Virus record (IMG/VR): IMGVR_UViG_2778261176_000013
Coordinates: 1 to 12,423 of that record
Origin: a virus
Taxonomy: Duplodnaviria; Heunggongvirae; Uroviricota; Caudoviricetes
Reading direction: 5' to 3' (one strand)
Length of the DNA: 12,423 bases
Under the pieces are notes generated by a model. It saw nothing but the letters and a program-made list of their open reading frames with translations. It searched no databases and was not told the origin of the DNA. This document shows, one piece after another, positions 5,450 to 12,423 of the stretch. Position 1 is the first letter of the stretch. The number at the start of each line of letters is the position of its first letter. Made by a program: the position numbers and the translations under genes.

Positions 5450-6034
5450 ATGAAAAGTATCCAGGACGTCCGCAGGCAAAATCTCAACGACTTGATCGAC
5501 CGTGAATTCAATGGTGTTCAGACGCGGATGGCAGAAAAACTTGGAACTCAGGCAAATCTGGTAAACCGCTGGGCTCTTGGCAAGAAGGTTATCGGCGACC
5601 AGGTTGCGCGAAAAATTGAAGCTGCCGCCAATAAACCACGTAACTGGCTTGATATCGATCGCTCGCTTTCTCAGGAAGGTTTTCAGCCTGTCGGCCCAAG
5701 CGACATTGGTCAGCTGGCGGCTCACAACCTGGAACGCTGGATGAGCGAAAGCCGCGACCTTTCAACTCAGGGAAAACTTCACCGCGCATCCGGCGTCGCC
5801 CAGGTGACAATCAGCCGCCTGTTAAACAATGAGGTCAGTGTTTCCATTTCCACCCTGGAGAATGTTGCATCAGCATTCGGGCGTCACGGCTATGAATTAC
5901 TGATTCACCCGCACGACCCTGCGACCATCAACTATGACCGCTCGCGCTACGCATTGTTACCCGAAACCGAGAAAGCAAAGATCGAAAGTTACATTGAATT
6001 TGTCATCAACCAGAACGAAAAAAACAAACAATAA
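5450..6034 (+). CDS. CI-like immunity repressor with two HTH domains and no S24 peptidase domain (194 aa)
   Basis: Two XRE-type HTH segments (GVQTRMAEKLGTQANLVNRW and ASGVAQVTISRLLNNEVSVSISTLENVASAF). No Ser/Lys autopeptidase region recognisable. Divergent from cro across an operator-rich intergenic region and followed by a strong intrinsic terminator. Confidence 0.7.
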   Translation: MKSIQDVRRQNLNDLIDREFNGVQTRMAEKLGTQANLVNRWALGKKVIGDQVARKIEAAANKPRNWLDIDRSLSQEGFQPVGPSDIGQLAAHNLERWMSESRDLSTQGKLHRASGVAQVTISRLLNNEVSVSISTLENVASAFGRHGYELLIHPHDPATINYDRSRYALLPETEKAKIESYIEFVINQNEKNKQ

Positions 6035-6055
6035 AATCATATTTTTCAGTAAGTA

Positions 6056-6078
6056 AGCCGCCTTCTGGCGGCTTTTTT
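6056..6078 (+). terminator. Intrinsic terminator downstream of the CI-like repressor gene
   Basis: AGCCGCC-TTCT-GGCGGCT stem-loop followed by a T6 tract. Confidence 0.75.
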
Positions 6079-6084
6079 ATTGCC

Positions 6085-6187
6085 TATACTATTACCTAAT
6101 GGGTAATTTTTTTAACTCATATCTATTGACACCAAACCAAATACGCATAATTATTACCTCAACGGTAACAGACCGAGGTAACAAGTT
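6085..6187 (+). promoter_or_regulatory. PL-like early promoter flanked by two perfect operators
   Basis: -35 TTGACA at 6126-6131, with a -10-like CATAATTA at 6146-6153. Operator G (6092-6106) lies 19 bp upstream of -35; operator H (6154-6168) abuts the -10 and covers the likely start site. Confidence 0.6.
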
Positions 6188-6340
6188 ATGCAGTGGAAAA
6201 TCATCAACGGTTGGTACTGCGTTACTGCATGCGGATTCATGAGCTGGAAGTTCCGCACCTTACAGGAAGGCATTAAGTGGGCTTTCGTCAGCAAAGAAGC
6301 TCGCGATGTGGCCAACGATAACGAGATATGGGAGGGCTGA
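6188..6340 (+). CDS. Hypothetical Trp-rich small protein (50 aa), first gene of the PL-like operon; not in the supplied ORF track
   Basis: ATG at 6188 with GAGG 9 nt upstream, 20 nt after operator H. Hand translation: MQWKIINGWYCVTACGFMSWKFRTLQEGIKWAFVSKEARDVANDNEIWEG. Stop TGA at 6338-6340, 2 nt before the next ATG. Confidence 0.45.
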   Translation: MQWKIINGWYCVTACGFMSWKFRTLQEGIKWAFVSKEARDVANDNEIWEG

Positions 6341-6342
6341 TA

Positions 6343-6642
6343 ATGAACGTTAATCAGCAGAAAAATCTTCAAAAAATCATGCTGGCATTCGACAAGGACT
6401 ACCGCCTGTCAGAACAGCTATATGACCGACAAGTTGAACTGATCGAGAGCATCCGGCTTCATCAACTAGCCTCAACTTTCGACGCTGTAACAGGTAAAGG
6501 CGTTCGCCAGGAAGTACTGGAGGCCGCTAAAGACAGTCCAGAGTTCGAAGAACTGATGGATTCCTACCGGCGCGAGGCAATGGCAATTATCGCCCGCTGG
6601 GATCTGGCGGATCAGCTTGATGGACAGAGGGACGCGGCATGA
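6343..6642 (+). CDS. Hypothetical protein (99 aa) in the Gam/RacC position upstream of the exonuclease
   Basis: ATG at 6343 preceded by GGGAGGG. Stop overlaps the exonuclease start (ATGA). No family recognised. Confidence 0.6.
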   Translation: MNVNQQKNLQKIMLAFDKDYRLSEQLYDRQVELIESIRLHQLASTFDAVTGKGVRQEVLEAAKDSPEFEELMDSYRREAMAIIARWDLADQLDGQRDAA

Positions 6643-7538
6643 TGCGGAACGCTGGAATCATGGATAGAACAAAATACATCGGAGGAAGCGATGTTGCAGG
6701 GATTCTTGGAATTAGCCCATGGCGCACCCCGCTTGAGGTTTATCTGGATAAGGTCCAGCCACGTGTCAAACCAGTAGACCCAAGCAAGCAGAAAGTTTTC
6801 ACGCGTGGCCAGCGTATGGAGCCATACGTAATAGACCTGCTTTCTGAGGAAACAGGGATGGAAATCGTTCATCGCGGAAACCGCTATATCCACCGTGATT
6901 ACGATTTTATTGCAGCTGAGATCGATGCAGAAGCAGCGTCAGGCGAGAACATTGAGATCAAAACAGTTAGTCCGTTCAAAGCCAAAGAATGGGGAGAAAT
7001 CCAGACAGATGCAATTCCTGTGCATTACACGGCCCAGGCCATGCACGGGTTGATGGTTACAAACAAACAGGTATGCGTTTTCGGTGTGCTTATCGGTGGC
7101 GACGACTTCCGAATCTATCGGGTTGAGCGTGATGAAGAAACTATCCAGGCGATCTTAGAAAAAGAAATCGCTTTCTGGGACCGAGTGAAAAATCTTAACC
7201 CGCCGGAAGCTACCAGCGTAAGCGATGTATCGCTGATGTTTGAGAAAGATGCCGGGACAAGTATCGAGGCTGACGGAAAGGCACTCTCACTATTCAACGA
7301 TCTACGAGACATGAAGTCACGCAGAAAATTACTGGAAGAAGAAATAGCTATATCAGAAGAGAAGCTGAAGATGTACATGCAAGAGCACTCAGTCCTGACC
7401 CTAGACGGAAAGCCGCTCTGCACATGGAAATCTCAGATCAGCAACAGATTCGACCAGAAGCTATTCCAGTCAGTACACCCTGAGTTATTCGAAAAATTCA
7501 AAACAACAACGACACAACGCGTCTTCAGAATGAAGTAA
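6639..7538 (+). CDS. YqaJ-type phage exonuclease (RecE/Red-alpha functional analogue)
   Basis: N-terminal KYIGGSDVAGILGISPWRTPLEVY is the hallmark of YqaJ-like viral recombinase exonucleases. Immediately upstream of recT. Confidence 0.85.
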   Translation: MMRNAGIMDRTKYIGGSDVAGILGISPWRTPLEVYLDKVQPRVKPVDPSKQKVFTRGQRMEPYVIDLLSEETGMEIVHRGNRYIHRDYDFIAAEIDAEAASGENIEIKTVSPFKAKEWGEIQTDAIPVHYTAQAMHGLMVTNKQVCVFGVLIGGDDFRIYRVERDEETIQAILEKEIAFWDRVKNLNPPEATSVSDVSLMFEKDAGTSIEADGKALSLFNDLRDMKSRRKLLEEEIAISEEKLKMYMQEHSVLTLDGKPLCTWKSQISNRFDQKLFQSVHPELFEKFKTTTTQRVFRMK

Positions 7539-7547
7539 GGAGAAAAA

Positions 7548-8570
7548 ATGTCTATCAATGCACTTAAGGCAGCAGCTACCGGTAACCAAGTTGCACATCA
7601 TAATGAGAAACCAACAACTCTGGCCGGACTTCTGGCAGACCCAAAAATTAAAGCTCAGATGGCTTTGGCACTTCCAAAGCACATGACAGCAGACCGTCTG
7701 GCGCGCATAGCAACCACAGAGATCCGAAAGGTTCCAAAACTTGCATCATGCGACCAAGCCAGCTTCCTGGGGGCAATTATGCAATGTGCCCAATTGGGTC
7801 TTGAACCAGGCGGAGCTCTTGGACACGCTTACCTGATACCGTTCGACAAACGCCAGAAAGTAAATGGAAGATGGGAAACCGTATCTACAGAAGCACAGCT
7901 GATTATCGGCTATCGCGGAATGATTGACCTTGCCCGCCGCTCTGGGCAGATCCTGAGTATCTCAGCTCGTACCGTACATACAAACGACAAATTCAGCTAC
8001 TCATACGGCATGGAAGAAACGCTCGAGCATTTACCTTGCGAAACAGGTGACCGCGGAGAATTAACACACGTTTACGCCGTTGCACGACTGAAAGATGGCG
8101 GAGTCCAATTTGAAGTTATGAGCCGGGCAGCCGTTGAGAAAGTTCGTGCACTGAGCAAAGCCGGTAGCAGTGGCCCATGGGTTGATCACTTCGATGAGAT
8201 GGCTAAAAAAACAGTAATTCGCCGACTGTTCAAATATCTTCCTGTTTCTATTGAAATGCAGAAGGCTGTTGTTATGGATGAGCGCGCTGAAGCTGGACTT
8301 AGCCAAGATAACGCAGCTGTTATCACTGGTGAATATTCCGTAGTTGACGATGAGCGTCAACACCTATCGCCAATTTCAGATTCAGAACGAGAAGAAGCTC
8401 GAGAATATATCATCGCGATACTTAATAGCCTGGATCCATCTGCTGAAGATGCAAAAACGATGTTCAAGCGCGCTGAAAATGAAATTAACACCATGGCTGA
8501 AAAGCTCGGTGATGAATATCACCAAAAATTCATGATGACGCTTAACGATATGCGTCCAGAATTCGAGTAA
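7548..8570 (+). CDS. recT: RecT single-strand annealing recombinase
   Basis: AAGGAG SD. Long stretches match Rac RecT as I recall it: LPKHMTADRLARIATTEIRKVPKL, QLIIGYRGMIDLARRSGQI, THVYAVARLKDGG.QFEVM, EMAKKT.IRRLFKYLPVSIE. Confidence 0.92.
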   Translation: MSINALKAAATGNQVAHHNEKPTTLAGLLADPKIKAQMALALPKHMTADRLARIATTEIRKVPKLASCDQASFLGAIMQCAQLGLEPGGALGHAYLIPFDKRQKVNGRWETVSTEAQLIIGYRGMIDLARRSGQILSISARTVHTNDKFSYSYGMEETLEHLPCETGDRGELTHVYAVARLKDGGVQFEVMSRAAVEKVRALSKAGSSGPWVDHFDEMAKKTVIRRLFKYLPVSIEMQKAVVMDERAEAGLSQDNAAVITGEYSVVDDERQHLSPISDSEREEAREYIIAILNSLDPSAEDAKTMFKRAENEINTMAEKLGDEYHQKFMMTLNDMRPEFE

Positions 8571-8619
8571 CCACCACCGCGGCGCCACGTGCGCCTCACT
8601 GCAACCAAGAGAGGTATTC

Positions 8620-8868
8620 ATGAAAGGTGCATTAGGTAAGAAAGAACTCCTGGCGGTGGTGCCACTGTCATGGAGCACTATCGACCGTATGGAGCGCGCA
8701 GGGGAATTTCCTAAACGCTGGTATATCACCGATAAACGCTGCGCATGGAACCGTGACGAAGTTGAGCGTTGGCTTGATGAACGTCAGGCAGCAAGCCCGG
8801 CAGAGTTCCAGGGTAAAAAGCCTCCTGTTCAGCAACGTGTATATCGTCCTGTGAGCAACGCTGCATGA
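8620..8868 (+). CDS. AlpA/Xis-family small DNA-binding protein (excisionase-like regulator)
   Basis: AGAGAGG SD. Motif SWSTIDRMERAGEFPKRWYITDKRCAWNRDEVERWL resembles AlpA/excisionase winged-helix proteins. Confidence 0.7.
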   Translation: MKGALGKKELLAVVPLSWSTIDRMERAGEFPKRWYITDKRCAWNRDEVERWLDERQAASPAEFQGKKPPVQQRVYRPVSNAA

Positions 8869-8977
8869 GTGCGCTGCTAAGGCACTGGAGCAAATGGTCA
8901 GGATGGTACTTATTCCTGGCCTCTGTTTCAGCATGGCTTTATCTGCTGGCATTAATTTTCAGAGAGGGTTGGATTAA

Positions 8978-9277
8978 GTGAGAAAGTTAAGCCGACTTGA
9001 AAAATATCACATGAACAAGGTTTCAATGCGCAGTCCGTCAAAGATTGTCGCCGTTACTCCTGCGGCGATAGAGATCGAAAAACGCGCGATTGAAAGAGAG
9101 AAAAAAGGGCAGTTCCGCATTGCCGCTCACCTTTGGCTTCAGTGTATGGATGTTGCTTCTGGTGATGTTGAGCGTGCAAGGATCGCGGTTCGCAGGGACC
9201 AATGTATCACAAAAGGTAACGGCCTTCGCCGTGGCGACTATAGCGGCATAGGATGTTGTGGGGTGGTTTATGACTAA
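8978..9277 (+). CDS. PerC-like putative transcriptional regulator (99 aa; start uncertain)
   Basis: GTG at 8978 preceded by AGAGAGGG; internal ATGs at 9011 and 9026 are alternatives. RIAAHLWLQCMDVASGDVERARIAVRRDQC resembles the PerC-family pattern. Overlaps the methyltransferase start. Confidence 0.45.
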   Translation: MRKLSRLEKYHMNKVSMRSPSKIVAVTPAAIEIEKRAIEREKKGQFRIAAHLWLQCMDVASGDVERARIAVRRDQCITKGNGLRRGDYSGIGCCGVVYD

Positions 9278-9920
9278 GAAATACACACTAATCTATGCAG
9301 ATCCACCCTGGGTATACCGGGACAAAGCCGCAGATGGTAATCGCGGTGCCGGTTTTAAATATCCGGTTATGAGTGTGCTGGACATCTGCCGCCTTCCTGT
9401 GTGGGATTTGGCCGATGAAAACTGTCTGTTGGCCATGTGGTGGGTGCCAACACAACCACTCGAAGCACTAAAAGTTATTGAAGCCTGGGGATTCCGTCTG
9501 ATGACCATGAAGGGATTCACGTGGATAAAATGTGGTAGTCGACAACCAGATAAACTGGTTATGGGTATGGGTCACATGACTCGCGCCAATAGTGAAGATT
9601 GCCTGTTTGCGGTAAAGGGAAAACTACCTCCGCGCATTAATGCAGGGATCGTTCAGTCATTTACCGCACCGCGACTTGAGCATTCAAGAAAACCAGATGT
9701 CGTTCGTGAAAAACTTGTGCAATTGTTAGGCGATGTTTCTCGCATTGAACTGTTCGCCCGCCAGTCGTCTCATGGCTTCGATGTTTGGGGTAATCAGTGC
9801 GAAGACCCGGCAGTGCAACTACACCCTGGATACGCGTTGGATATTGGCGGATTAACAAATGCATTCAGCAATTCTCCGCTGTCACCAACAGACAACCAGG
9901 GGCGGGAGCGTGCAGCATGA
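9270..9920 (+). CDS. MT-A70-family DNA N6-adenine methyltransferase (orphan, no adjacent restriction enzyme)
   Basis: N-terminal YTLIYADPPWVY carries the DPPW catalytic motif. ATG at 9270 (GTG at 9258 is an alternative). Stop overlaps the start of the next ORF (ATGA). Confidence 0.8.
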   Translation: MTKKYTLIYADPPWVYRDKAADGNRGAGFKYPVMSVLDICRLPVWDLADENCLLAMWWVPTQPLEALKVIEAWGFRLMTMKGFTWIKCGSRQPDKLVMGMGHMTRANSEDCLFAVKGKLPPRINAGIVQSFTAPRLEHSRKPDVVREKLVQLLGDVSRIELFARQSSHGFDVWGNQCEDPAVQLHPGYALDIGGLTNAFSNSPLSPTDNQGRERAA

Positions 9921-10165
9921 AGCAGATTATGGTTGCACACAACGGCGTCAGGTTTGAAGTCGTCATGGTTTTGACTAAGTTCCACAATGATGAGGTATTG
10001 CACAGAAAAGAAACTGTAACTTACCGTTATAAACACCGCAGTTCAGCTGTTAGAAAATTACGGAAGATTGCGGAAGAACTAAAAAATGATCCTCATCGTG
10101 TTATTGAGGTAAAAGGCAACCCATATAAAATCAAAACTTCAGTGGAGCTAAGACATATGCAATAA
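9917..10165 (+). CDS. Hypothetical basic protein (82 aa), coupled to the methyltransferase
   Basis: ATG at 9917 overlaps the methyltransferase stop, with GGGAGCG upstream. Lys/Arg-rich. Followed by a 324-bp intergenic region with a terminator-like element. Confidence 0.5.
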   Translation: MKQIMVAHNGVRFEVVMVLTKFHNDEVLHRKETVTYRYKHRSSAVRKLRKIAEELKNDPHRVIEVKGNPYKIKTSVELRHMQ

Positions 10166-10296
10166 AATCACGCCTGACGAATCGCGATTATCTCGCTATT
10201 GGTATTGCAGAGATTGCTGGACTCAATGGCGCATGATTTGACAATGCCGCCAGAGCTATCGCATACTGACCGCACTAGAAAACAAACAGCGGTCAT

Positions 10297-10324
10297 CCGC
10301 ACCCGATAGCTTTGCGGCTTTTTT
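10297..10324 (+). terminator. Possible intrinsic terminator after the methyltransferase operon
   Basis: CCGCA ... TGCGG stem (5 bp) with an 11-nt loop, followed by C and a T6 tract. Confidence 0.35.
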
Positions 10325-10409
10325 ATGCCTGCAATCTGGCATAGTCACATCCGTACAAAGGTCGGGTGGAGAGGCGTAATACAACACCCGAAAGGGGAAT
10401 ATGCCCGGA

Positions 10410-10489
10410 GCTACTGTTTGTGCTCTAGTTGACACCCGATCACCAGTTACTAACTGGTTTTCGTAACTAAAAACAAACAGGAGGTCATC
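10410..10489 (+). promoter_or_regulatory. Antirepressor upstream region with TTGACA hexamer and a 15-bp perfect palindrome
   Basis: TTGACA at 10429-10434. Perfect palindrome CCAGTTA-C-TAACTGG at 10443-10457. No convincing -10 hexamer found by eye. Confidence 0.4.
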
Positions 10490-11140
10490 ATGACCAGTCA
10501 ACTCATCCCCGTATTCAACGGCACTATATCCAACGAAACCGCTCTTCTCGTTAATGCCCGTGATTTACACACTTTCCTCGATGTGGGTAAGCGATTTGCT
10601 TCGTGGATTGTCGAACGAATTGCTGAATATGGTTTCGTTGAAAATCAAGACTTTATGATTATTTCCCAAGTTCGGGAAAAAATAGGCAGAGGCCGTCCTG
10701 CAAAAGACTACCACCTCACCCTCGATACAGCCAAAGAGCTGGCGATGGTCGAGCGTAATGAAAAAGGTCGTCAGGTACGACGCTACTTCATTGAATGCGA
10801 GAAACGTTTAAGACAACAAGAAACAAAAGTGGAGAAGGTCTTGTCAGGCTTCATGCCCGCCATTATGGAGGCGATCAAGCTGGAAGACAAAAAAGAATAC
10901 AGTGCCCCACTGAAGCCCGGCTACCGCAGCCTGATTCACTCGCCGTCTGGTGTTCTCGGCCTGACGGAGAACTCACTGCTGATGAATCTGCTGAACCAGT
11001 TACAGGAAGACGGGCACGACGTATCGGGTGCGGCGGCGGAGCTGACCACCATGTTCTGCTACATCGTCGGTGTGAGCAAATGCCTGCGTGATATCCAGAC
11101 CCACGCGGAGTACATCAACGACAAGGCAGGGTTCTTCTGA
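10490..11140 (+). CDS. Phage antirepressor, AntA/AntB N-terminal domain type (216 aa)
   Basis: AGGAGG 7 nt upstream of ATG. N-terminal region (LIPVFNGT...ARDLHTFLDVGKRFASWIVERIAEYGFVENQDF...KDYHLTLDTAKELAMVERNEKGRQVRRYF) matches AntA/AntB antirepressor domains as I recall them. Confidence 0.75.
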   Translation: MTSQLIPVFNGTISNETALLVNARDLHTFLDVGKRFASWIVERIAEYGFVENQDFMIISQVREKIGRGRPAKDYHLTLDTAKELAMVERNEKGRQVRRYFIECEKRLRQQETKVEKVLSGFMPAIMEAIKLEDKKEYSAPLKPGYRSLIHSPSGVLGLTENSLLMNLLNQLQEDGHDVSGAAAELTTMFCYIVGVSKCLRDIQTHAEYINDKAGFF

Positions 11141-11172
11141 CGGGCGGCGGCACATGGATGTGTCGGGCAAAA

Positions 11173-12423
11173 TTATTCCCCCGCCATCCACTTCTCAAAC
11201 TTCGACGGGGAGAACGGAATCAGATCCGTATGCTCCCCGTCAATCCATGAATCAATCATATCGGCCCACTGCTGCAACATGTAGGCGCGCTGTCTGGCGT
11301 ATTCCGCTTTGTTGTATACGGCGCGCACACCTTTCTGCTCATGTGCCAGAGCCTTTTCAATCCAGTCTGAAGGATAACCAGCCTCATGCAACAACGTACT
11401 GGCTGTACGGCGCATATCATGTACAGTGAAGTCCTGAATATGCTCACCATCTTCATTTATTATTTTCACCGTTCTGTCGATCAGAGAGTTCAGCGCGGCA
11501 TTAGATAATGGCTTCCGGAAATTGTAACGACCAGGAACCAGATATTCACTTCCACCAGCGCACATCTGCAACCCGACCAATATATCCTGTGCCTGTTTAG
11601 GCAGGTAAATAACGTGCGCCCGGCTTCCCTTCATGCGGTCTGGAGGAATTGTCCATGTCCATTTTTTAAAATCTATTTCATCCCACGTTGCATTGGTGAA
11701 TTCGCCCTTACGAACCATAGTGATAAGCACCAGTTTTAAAGCCATTTTCATAGTGCCCATAGCACCAATGGCATCCAGCGTGCGGAAGAACAGGCCAATT
11801 TCTTCTGGTGTCAGTGTTCGCTCTCGTGGTTTAAATATGGCGATAGACGAAGGTTTAATGTCAGCCGCAGGATTAAACAAACCATGACCACGGTCATTGG
11901 CGTGACGGTATACGCTACTGATGATCTCCCTGGCCTGCACTGCTGTTGCCCGGCCACCGCGTTCGACAATCCGGTCACACAAATCACGAACCATCGATGT
12001 GGTAATTTCAGCCATCATTTTATTGCCAAGAACCGGAAGTATGTCACGGTCGATCACCGCCTGTTTCATTGCGCGGGTACTGTCAGCCAGGATGACGTGT
12101 TTCATATAACTGTCGGTATGTACCGCAAACGTCTCGGCACCACGAATCTTTTTGATACCGTCACGTTTAGCCGCAGCCGGTGACTGGCCTGCTTTAAGCA
12201 GCTTCTTTGCAGCAATCAGTTCTTCTCGCGCTTCTGCCAGGCTGATACCGTCACGCCCATACTGCCCGATTACCAGTGTTTCGCGGCGACCGTTGATACG
12301 GTAGTCATAGCGAAACGAGACCGTGCCTGACGTAAGCACAGCTACATACAGCCCGTCACGATCGGAGACCTTGTACAGTTTGTCCTGCGGCTTGAGGTTT
12401 TTTAATTTTGTATCGGTAAGCAC
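11173..12423 (-). CDS. Tyrosine integrase, P4-type (N-terminus truncated by window edge)
   Basis: N-terminal LTDTKLKNLKP...YKVSDRDGLYVAVLTSGTVSFRYDYRINGRRETL is typical of P4-like integrases. C-terminal catalytic region has HDMRRT and AHEQKGVRAVYNKAEY (conserved Tyr). The ORF runs to the last base of the window. Confidence 0.9.
   Translation of the reverse strand: MLTDTKLKNLKPQDKLYKVSDRDGLYVAVLTSGTVSFRYDYRINGRRETLVIGQYGRDGISLAEAREELIAAKKLLKAGQSPAAAKRDGIKKIRGAETFAVHTDSYMKHVILADSTRAMKQAVIDRDILPVLGNKMMAEITTSMVRDLCDRIVERGGRATAVQAREIISSVYRHANDRGHGLFNPAADIKPSSIAIFKPRERTLTPEEIGLFFRTLDAIGAMGTMKMALKLVLITMVRKGEFTNATWDEIDFKKWTWTIPPDRMKGSRAHVIYLPKQAQDILVGLQMCAGGSEYLVPGRYNFRKPLSNAALNSLIDRTVKIINEDGEHIQDFTVHDMRRTASTLLHEAGYPSDWIEKALAHEQKGVRAVYNKAEYARQRAYMLQQWADMIDSWIDGEHTDLIPFSPSKFEKWMAGE

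Follow-up and report, generated by a model that had tools for sequence, protein, structure and literature searches.

Layout of the recombination module

The stretch of DNA analyzed here (12,423 nucleotides, hereafter the window; IMG/VR virus record IMGVR_UViG_2778261176_000013) comes from an integrated Uetakevirus (epsilon15/phiV10-like) prophage of Escherichia coli. It shows 99% nucleotide identity to prophages that are integrated beside guaA in many E. coli chromosomes. Positions 6126 to 8570 are the start of the early-left operon of this prophage and carry all the parts of a recombination module of the lambda Red type, with RecT as its annealase instead of Red-beta. The present study is concerned mainly with a protein of 99 amino acid residues (aa) encoded in this module and with its relation to phage lambda's Gam protein. 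An initial annotation of the window, made from the sequence alone, had placed three + strand genes for proteins of 99, 299, and 340 aa within 6343-8570, and the open reading frames (ORFs) were found at these places. Absent from that annotation were a conserved 50-aa gene (6188-6340) that opens the operon and the nature of the region as an epsilon15/phiV10-type prophage with the standard gene order. The features of the module and its upstream border are as follows.

5450-6034, gene for a two-helix-turn-helix repressor, preceding the terminator-like hairpin
6055..6074, + strand, intrinsic-terminator-like hairpin (8-bp stem with 6 GC pairs, then TTTTATT) at the end of the repressor gene
6126..6154, + strand, sigma-70-type promoter-like site (TTGACA, 17 nt, AATTAT; 10 of 12 positions match)
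6188..6340, + strand, 50-aa gene, first of the operon (phrog_898, unknown function, E value of 1.9e-38; homologue of epsilon15 gp37)
6343..6642, + strand, 99-aa Gam-like gene (phrog_856; homologue of epsilon15 gp36)
6639..7538, + strand, gene for a 299-aa nuclease of the YqaJ/lambda-exonuclease family
7548..8570, + strand, gene for a 340-aa RecT single-strand annealing protein

The hairpin at 6055..6074 is predicted, from its match to the consensus only, to separate the repressor transcript from the early-left operon, and a terminator is annotated at the equivalent place in phiV10. The site at 6126..6154, which is the sole sigma-70-like match on the + strand in 5900-8900, is probably the early-left (pL-like) promoter of the operon; repressor-binding sites are annotated in the equivalent interval of epsilon15. 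After the hairpin, no terminator-like site was found on the + strand before 8900. The unit thus delimited runs from the promoter-like site through the 50-aa gene, the 99-aa gene, the nuclease gene, and the recT gene to a gene for an AlpA-type excisionase. The ATG codon of the 99-aa gene at 6343 lies 6 nt past a GGGAGGG sequence and 2 nt past the stop codon of the 50-aa ORF; the same start is given in the RefSeq annotation, and the PHROG profile also begins at that residue. The stop codon of the 99-aa gene overlaps the start codon of the exonuclease gene (ATGA, 6639-6642), and the gene stands directly upstream of the exonuclease/RecT pair, in the gam/racC position that had been ascribed to it. 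Translational coupling, which had been claimed for all three genes, is supported by this overlap at the first junction and is plausible at the second, where 9 nt separate the stop codon of the exonuclease gene from the start codon of recT and AAGGAG spans the stop codon.

Profile matches beyond the curated cut-offs place the 299-aa protein in the YqaJ/lambda-exonuclease family: it matched PF09588 (YqaJ) with an E value of 2.7e-23 and 83.3 bits (cut-off 22), and the NCBIfam model TIGR03033 ("lambda-exonuclease family") with 88.9 bits (cut-off 68.05). It also matched phrog_434 with an E value of 1.3e-111, and gave no match among the PDB sequences. D96 is followed by E105-I-K107 in the expected order, which would fit a PD-(D/E)XK motif as read off the sequence rather than from a structure alignment. 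RecE was rejected as a relative of this nuclease, with no significant BLASTP alignment to RecE of the Rac prophage and no PF12684 match, and the earlier description of the partner of RecT as a YqaJ-family nuclease and not RecE was therefore correct.

The 340-aa protein, likewise beyond the curated cut-offs, is assigned to the RecT family by PF03837 (E value of 1e-56 and 192.1 bits, cut-off 24) and by the NCBIfam RecT equivalog NF007351 (422.9 bits, cut-off 296; residues 4-274). Its core is Rac-like, as had been stated, with 59% identity to Rac RecT over 251 aa, and it matched the Listeria RecT 7ub2 with an E value of 3.4e-9. A C-terminal extension of approximately 70 aa (residues 271-340; window positions 8358-8570) falls outside the NCBIfam RecT model, is predicted to be helical, and is missing from Rac RecT. 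By analogy with the C-terminal domain of Red-beta, this extension could be a partner-specific part that binds the exonuclease or the single-stranded DNA-binding protein.

The module was compared with known systems. The Salmonella phage epsilon15 (NC_004775) has an identical architecture in gp37-gp36-gp35-gp34, with sizes of 50, 99/100, 299, and 340 aa and 81% nucleotide identity to the window across the whole module. Its gp36 is 53% identical to the 99-aa protein; gp35 is annotated as a "RecE-like exonuclease" and gp34 as RecT, and gp36 and gp37 are hypothetical proteins only. The differences from the window lie in the host (Salmonella) and in the surrounding accessory genes. Because epsilon15 has the same four genes, the architecture of the module is already on record. 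The racC-recE-recT genes of the Rac prophage follow the same order of small gene, exonuclease, and RecT, but the window nuclease is not RecE, the small gene is not racC, and the window RecT has the additional tail. Pairs of a YqaJ-family nuclease of approximately 300 aa and a RecT-family annealase, as in the window, also occur in the YqaJ/YqaK-type modules of the Bacillus subtilis skin element and of SPP1 (G34.1P/G35P); no module of this type is known to have a gene for a Gam-fold protein upstream.

Relation of the 99-aa protein to lambda Gam

The 99-aa protein of the window gave no match in Pfam even at an E value of 10 or lower, none in NCBIfam, and nothing with a significant E value among the PDB sequences. 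It falls in phrog_856, labeled "unknown function," and is a "hypothetical protein" in RefSeq and phage records. None of the databases consulted (RefSeq, INPHARED, PHROGs, Pfam, and NCBIfam) names the family, and no paper or database entry calling the gene Gam-like was found among open-access papers and preprints. The family is narrow: a profile search run exhaustively over 1.84 billion representatives gave just 32 matches; a word-index protein search returned close relatives only. All the named sources belong to the Enterobacterales, namely, Escherichia, Shigella, Salmonella, Citrobacter, Kluyvera, Klebsiella, Candidatus Erwinia dacicola, and Superficieibacter, and a search of genome contigs with a narrower alignment found only four species representatives, all from the same order.

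Four lines of evidence, independent of one another, were obtained for homology to Gam. At the profile level, the family resembled Gam. A motif, G-x10-D-x2-EF(E/Q)E-x-M-x4-R-x5-IA, is common to the family and the C-terminal part of lambda Gam. Comparison of 26 family members with 16 Gam proteins by hhalign gave a probability of 87.5%, a P value of 3.6e-6, and a score of 36.5, with 57 collinear columns that join family positions 32-88 to Gam positions 33-90. Reversed profiles scored 14.9 and 11.3, 200 column shuffles scored 11.2 ± 2.2 (maximum of 18.9), and 200 shuffles of seven-column blocks scored 13.3 ± 2.4 (maximum of 22.8), so that the observed score lies approximately 10 standard deviations beyond the shuffled and reversed controls. 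When the hidden Markov model (HMM) of the family was run against 177,635 PDB sequences, the Gam entries 5mbv_A and 2uuz_A ranked first with an E value of 0.21, which is not significant alone. The Pfam Gam family PF06064 was matched by one of the 26 members, with an E value of 0.0042, and was the best among the sub-threshold matches. Gam was at rank 1 in two unbiased searches. A bridging sequence was found in P0058, a family member that is 44-45% identical to the window protein, matches the family profile with an E value of 2e-18, and has the same synteny: a plain BLASTP alignment of P0058 with GamS showed 31% identity over 75 aa with an E value of 4e-6. GamS is the active short form of Gam and consists of residues 41-138 (PMC5218532); its length of 98 aa is close to that of the window protein, which is itself approximately 20% identical or less to Gam.

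Structure prediction pointed in the same direction. When eight distant members found by the exhaustive search were added to the alignment, AlphaFold gave a model of the 99-aa protein with a predicted local distance difference test score (pLDDT) of 93.2 and a predicted template modeling score (pTM) of 0.78. The model is all-helical, in line with the all-alpha fold of GamS. An earlier model, for which the alignment was shallow (identities of 73% or more), was discarded (pLDDT of 67.7 and pTM of 0.34); a Foldseek search of the PDB with that discarded model gave nothing at an E value of 0.001 or lower. Foldseek comparison with the BFVD viral models likewise gave no match at this threshold, and the best two were unnamed, uninformative proteins with template modeling (TM) scores of 0.78 and 0.73. 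RacC was rejected as a relative of the 99-aa protein, with no local alignment at an E value of 100 or lower.

Small acidic helical bundles might converge, and the 99-aa protein might be the product of an unrelated early gene whose similarity to Gam arose by chance. The weak E value of the direct HMM-to-sequence comparison with the PDB and the poor first model, which matched nothing, would suit such an explanation. Against it stand the first rank of Gam in both unbiased searches, the distance of the hhalign score from its controls, the BLASTP match of the bridging member, and the combination of a collinear alignment, equal lengths, and the same genomic position, and we consider chance similarity highly improbable. 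The 99-aa protein is very probably a remote, strongly diverged homologue of lambda Gam: membership is not seen at the level of the Pfam HMM, and the profiles and the predicted fold support it at the level of the superfamily or fold. The initial annotation had reported that the protein matches neither lambda Gam nor anything else and had suggested a profile search; in view of the profiles and the fold, its statement is not supported.

The likeness to lambda Red (GamS; PF06064; PDB 2UUZ and 5MBV) extends beyond the 99-aa protein. In both systems, the early-left operon codes for a small protein (98-99 aa; acidic and all-helical) directly upstream of the phage exonuclease and annealase, and the nuclease belongs to the lambda-exonuclease/YqaJ family. 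The profile homology spans the C-terminal two-thirds, including the shared motif, whereas the window protein's N-terminal helix is unalignable and non-acidic. The annealase is Red-beta in lambda and RecT in the window, and the lambda order of gam, bet, and exo contrasts with the order of gam-like gene, exonuclease gene, and annealase gene in the window, which is the gene order of Rac.

Two recombinase cassettes behind one small gene

To describe the surroundings of the family, we collected 165 loci with a gene for a relative of the 99-aa protein and inspected the genes that come after it. Thirty-eight loci have the arrangement of the window, in which the 299-aa YqaJ nuclease and the 340-aa RecT come next; in 119, the next genes encode a 273-aa RecE-like nuclease (PF12684) and a RecT of 293-322 aa. 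Four loci carry a 94-aa gene between the 99-aa gene and the RecE-like nuclease cassette, and the rest are contig ends or odd cases; a position upstream of an exonuclease/annealase pair was found in 161 of the 165. The inserted 94-aa gene (for example, L153 4282-4566) has no Pfam match, nor has a 337-aa gene that lies between the 50-aa gene and the Gam-like gene in one locus (L171 2980-3993). A homologue of the 50-aa protein, which contains Trp and Cys, is present in 162 of the 165 loci. The 50-aa gene sits roughly at the position of kil in lambda; lambda Kil was rejected as a relative of its product, with no alignment.

The two cassettes differ in both of their genes. Their nucleases are unrelated in sequence (PF09588 versus PF12684), and the one of 273 aa shows 51% identity to Rac RecE (residues 594-861). 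The RecT of the RecE-like cassette is barely similar to Rac RecT (E value of 0.004 over 68 aa) and to the window RecT. A common C-terminal tail of the two RecT types, as a possible site for a shared partner, was rejected (hhalign P value of 0.37). Both cassettes occur with 99-aa proteins that are 30% to 100% identical to that of the window, and 99-aa proteins with 97-100% identity to it stand upstream of both types. The Rac-like RecT therefore travels with the YqaJ nuclease and the Rac-like RecE domain with a different RecT, and the small upstream gene remains constant.

Phage phiV10 and many relatives (type A cassette) have the same two small genes as the window, with approximately 97% nucleotide identity over the first 543 bases of the query, and phiV10 and most of the E. 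coli Uetakevirus-like prophages share the flanks and the ATGA junction of the window. Their recombinase block, by contrast, consists of the 273-aa RecE-like nuclease and the divergent RecT. In the alignment with phiV10, homology ends at 6642 and resumes at 8567, so that the nuclease and RecT genes, and nothing else, make up the exchanged block; one breakpoint (6642/6643) falls on the ATGA junction and the other (8566/8567) among the final codons of recT. From these alignments, the cassettes appear to have been exchanged by recombination at gene boundaries. A 586-aa "RecE-RecT fusion" (L002 5539-7299) is annotated in phiV10 and occurs in no locus other than that of phiV10 (L002) and L039, which is the IMG/VR copy of it. 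Elsewhere, the RecE-like cassette (for example, L156 4282-5981) consists of two separate genes with an ATGA overlap, and a frameshift specific to the strain, or an error in sequencing, may account for the phiV10 fusion.

Counted as DNA matches, 561 of 5,426 complete E. coli genomes shared sequence with the recombination region; 78 of these carry the full window-type cassette, that is, the YqaJ nuclease, the RecT, and the two small genes. The initial annotation had called the module a hybrid. Its novelty was overstated, as the same pair with the two small genes occurs in epsilon15 and in the 78 genomes, but the mosaic is real in that the Rac-like RecT and the Rac-like RecE are found in different cassettes of the lineage.

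The constancy of the small gene bears on its role. The 99-aa protein could be an accessory factor that loads, stabilizes, or regulates the exonuclease or RecT and does not inhibit a host nuclease; the ATGA coupling to the exonuclease gene, which suggests coordinated synthesis, and the recombinase pair that always adjoins the 99-aa gene are consistent with this idea. A specific partner is nevertheless unlikely because the same protein is encoded upstream of unrelated nucleases and of barely alignable RecTs with unrelated tails, and the fold and the profiles point to Gam, which acts on a host enzyme. We regard an accessory role as very unlikely. No classical Gam was found in any of the 165 loci. 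The gene stays before two unrelated cassettes, is coupled to either nuclease, and lies in loci with no classical Gam; these three points fit a protein directed at the host rather than at one particular partner from the phage.

Probable target of the Gam-like protein, and neighboring genes

The GamS dimer obstructs RecBCD at the DNA-end site, its acidic side chains standing where the DNA phosphates would be, and Gam's N-terminal helix fills the RecB channel for the 3' single-stranded DNA (PMC5218532). The residues of Gam that form ion pairs with RecBCD are D48, E51, E65, E68, E70, D73, D74, D107, E111, E114, E118, and E125, of which E111, E114, and D74 pair with K288 and R297 of RecB and K1066 of RecC (PMC9836394 Table 1). 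According to the hhalign alignment, E111 corresponds to E67 of the 99-aa family (kept in 25 of the 26 members), E114 to E70 (24 of 26), and D74 to E32 (26 of 26). The window protein is acidic, with an isoelectric point of 4.71 and a net charge of −6. The initial annotation had proposed a candidate inhibitor of RecBCD or another host nuclease by position only. The candidate stands, and the proposal no longer depends on position alone because the profiles and the fold identify the protein as a diverged Gam. We consider it likely that the actual function of the 99-aa protein is the inhibition of RecBCD through its DNA-end site.

Several points weigh against this interpretation. For the window protein itself, homology to Gam can be seen only with the help of profiles, a bridging member, and a predicted fold. 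Just three of the 12 listed ion-pair residues are kept, and the other nine are either not conserved or in the unalignable N-terminus. The N-terminal 30 residues of the family, where helices are predicted at residues 3-17 and 20-34 of the window protein, are not confidently alignable to Gam; this segment has a net charge of +1 compared with −2 in Gam, and the Gam contacts D48 and E51 have no evident counterpart in it. The family is also less acidic overall than Gam, with net charges of −4 to −9 compared with −10 to −12. Because lambda Gam binds and inhibits KwaB of the Kiwa system in addition to RecBCD, a Gam fold alone does not fix the target. Finally, all the loci examined belong to one phage lineage, and the fixed position of the gene may partly reflect common descent.

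The main alternative is a different or additional target: the 99-aa protein might be a Gam-fold DNA mimic directed mainly at another host factor that binds DNA or DNA ends, such as SbcCD, KwaB of Kiwa, or another defense nuclease. The opposite charge of the unalignable helix that fills the RecB channel in Gam, the small share of kept ion-pair residues, and the precedent that a Gam-fold protein can have several targets would all favor such a target. On the other hand, the three kept acidic positions align to Gam residues that touch the RecB arm and RecC, the classical gam position before either cassette best suits an inhibitor of an enzyme that competes for DNA ends, and Pfam and PHROG searches recognized no other RecBCD inhibitor in the operon. 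A different main target thus seems unlikely to us. A related reading is that the family consists of Gam-fold DNA mimics in which a remodeled, non-acidic N-terminal helix gives a binding mode or target unlike that of lambda Gam, for example, another end-processing or defense complex, or RecBCD bound without plugging of the RecB channel; this we hold to be possible but rather improbable.

If RecBCD is the target, the gene order, the coupling, the families of the nuclease and RecT, the Gam-type fold and remote homology, and the fixed place upstream of two interchangeable cassettes would fit the following mechanism. The Gam-like protein would be made before the nuclease and RecT, its translation coupled to that of the nuclease, and would form an acidic helical dimer like GamS. 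The dimer would occupy the DNA-end-binding site of the host RecBCD, and this block would protect the linear ends of the phage DNA. The phage exonuclease of the YqaJ/lambda-Exo family would then resect the protected ends in the 5'-3' direction, and RecT would anneal the resulting single strands.

What is new here is the placement of the 99-aa protein, no longer an orphan, as a remote homologue of GamS; neither the kind of system nor the mechanism is new, and the understanding of how such modules work is unchanged. The phrog_856 family, for which RefSeq, INPHARED, PHROGs, Pfam, and NCBIfam at present offer no more than "hypothetical" or "unknown function," can be relabeled as Gam-like; Gam-type inhibitors of host nucleases would then be known from the epsilon15/phiV10-type podoviruses as well. 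The family would also provide a naturally diverged Gam, with the same core and EF(E/Q)E acidic patch and a different N-terminal helix, and with it a means to examine which parts of the protein are required to inhibit RecBCD and which to be recognized by systems that sense RecBCD inhibitors (retron Ec48 and the cross-talk with Kiwa). For recombineering, the three-gene cassette of inhibitor, nuclease, and RecT could be tried as a unit. Should the remodeled N-terminal helix indeed confer another binding mode or target, the family would be a new specificity class of anti-defense protein in approximately a tenth of the complete E. coli genomes, and toward systems that guard RecBCD, such as retron Ec48, it could act as a new kind of trigger or as no trigger at all.

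Further genes follow in the same operon after the excisionase gene, namely, those for a PerC-family activator (8978-9277, + strand) and an MT-A70 adenine methyltransferase (9258-9920, + strand). The longest PerC ORF starts with GTG and, at 99 aa, exceeds the 83-aa version annotated in the RefSeq relatives. The Chi octamer (GCTGGTGG) occurs in a single copy in the 12.4-kb window, at 11552-11559 on the − strand within the integrase gene; this count is no more than the chance expectation, as at least one copy was present in 56 of 200 shuffles. A match to the Rfam small RNA (sRNA) family RF02221 (sRNA-Xcc1) was detected at 10360-10449 on the + strand, with 65.2 bits compared with a gathering score of 53, just upstream of the gene for an AntA-type antirepressor (10490-11140). 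The segment from approximately 9921 to 11173, which comprises an 82-aa phrog_9805 gene, the sRNA match, and the AntA gene, is absent from phiV10 and resembles an insertion placed between the genes for the methyltransferase and the integrase.

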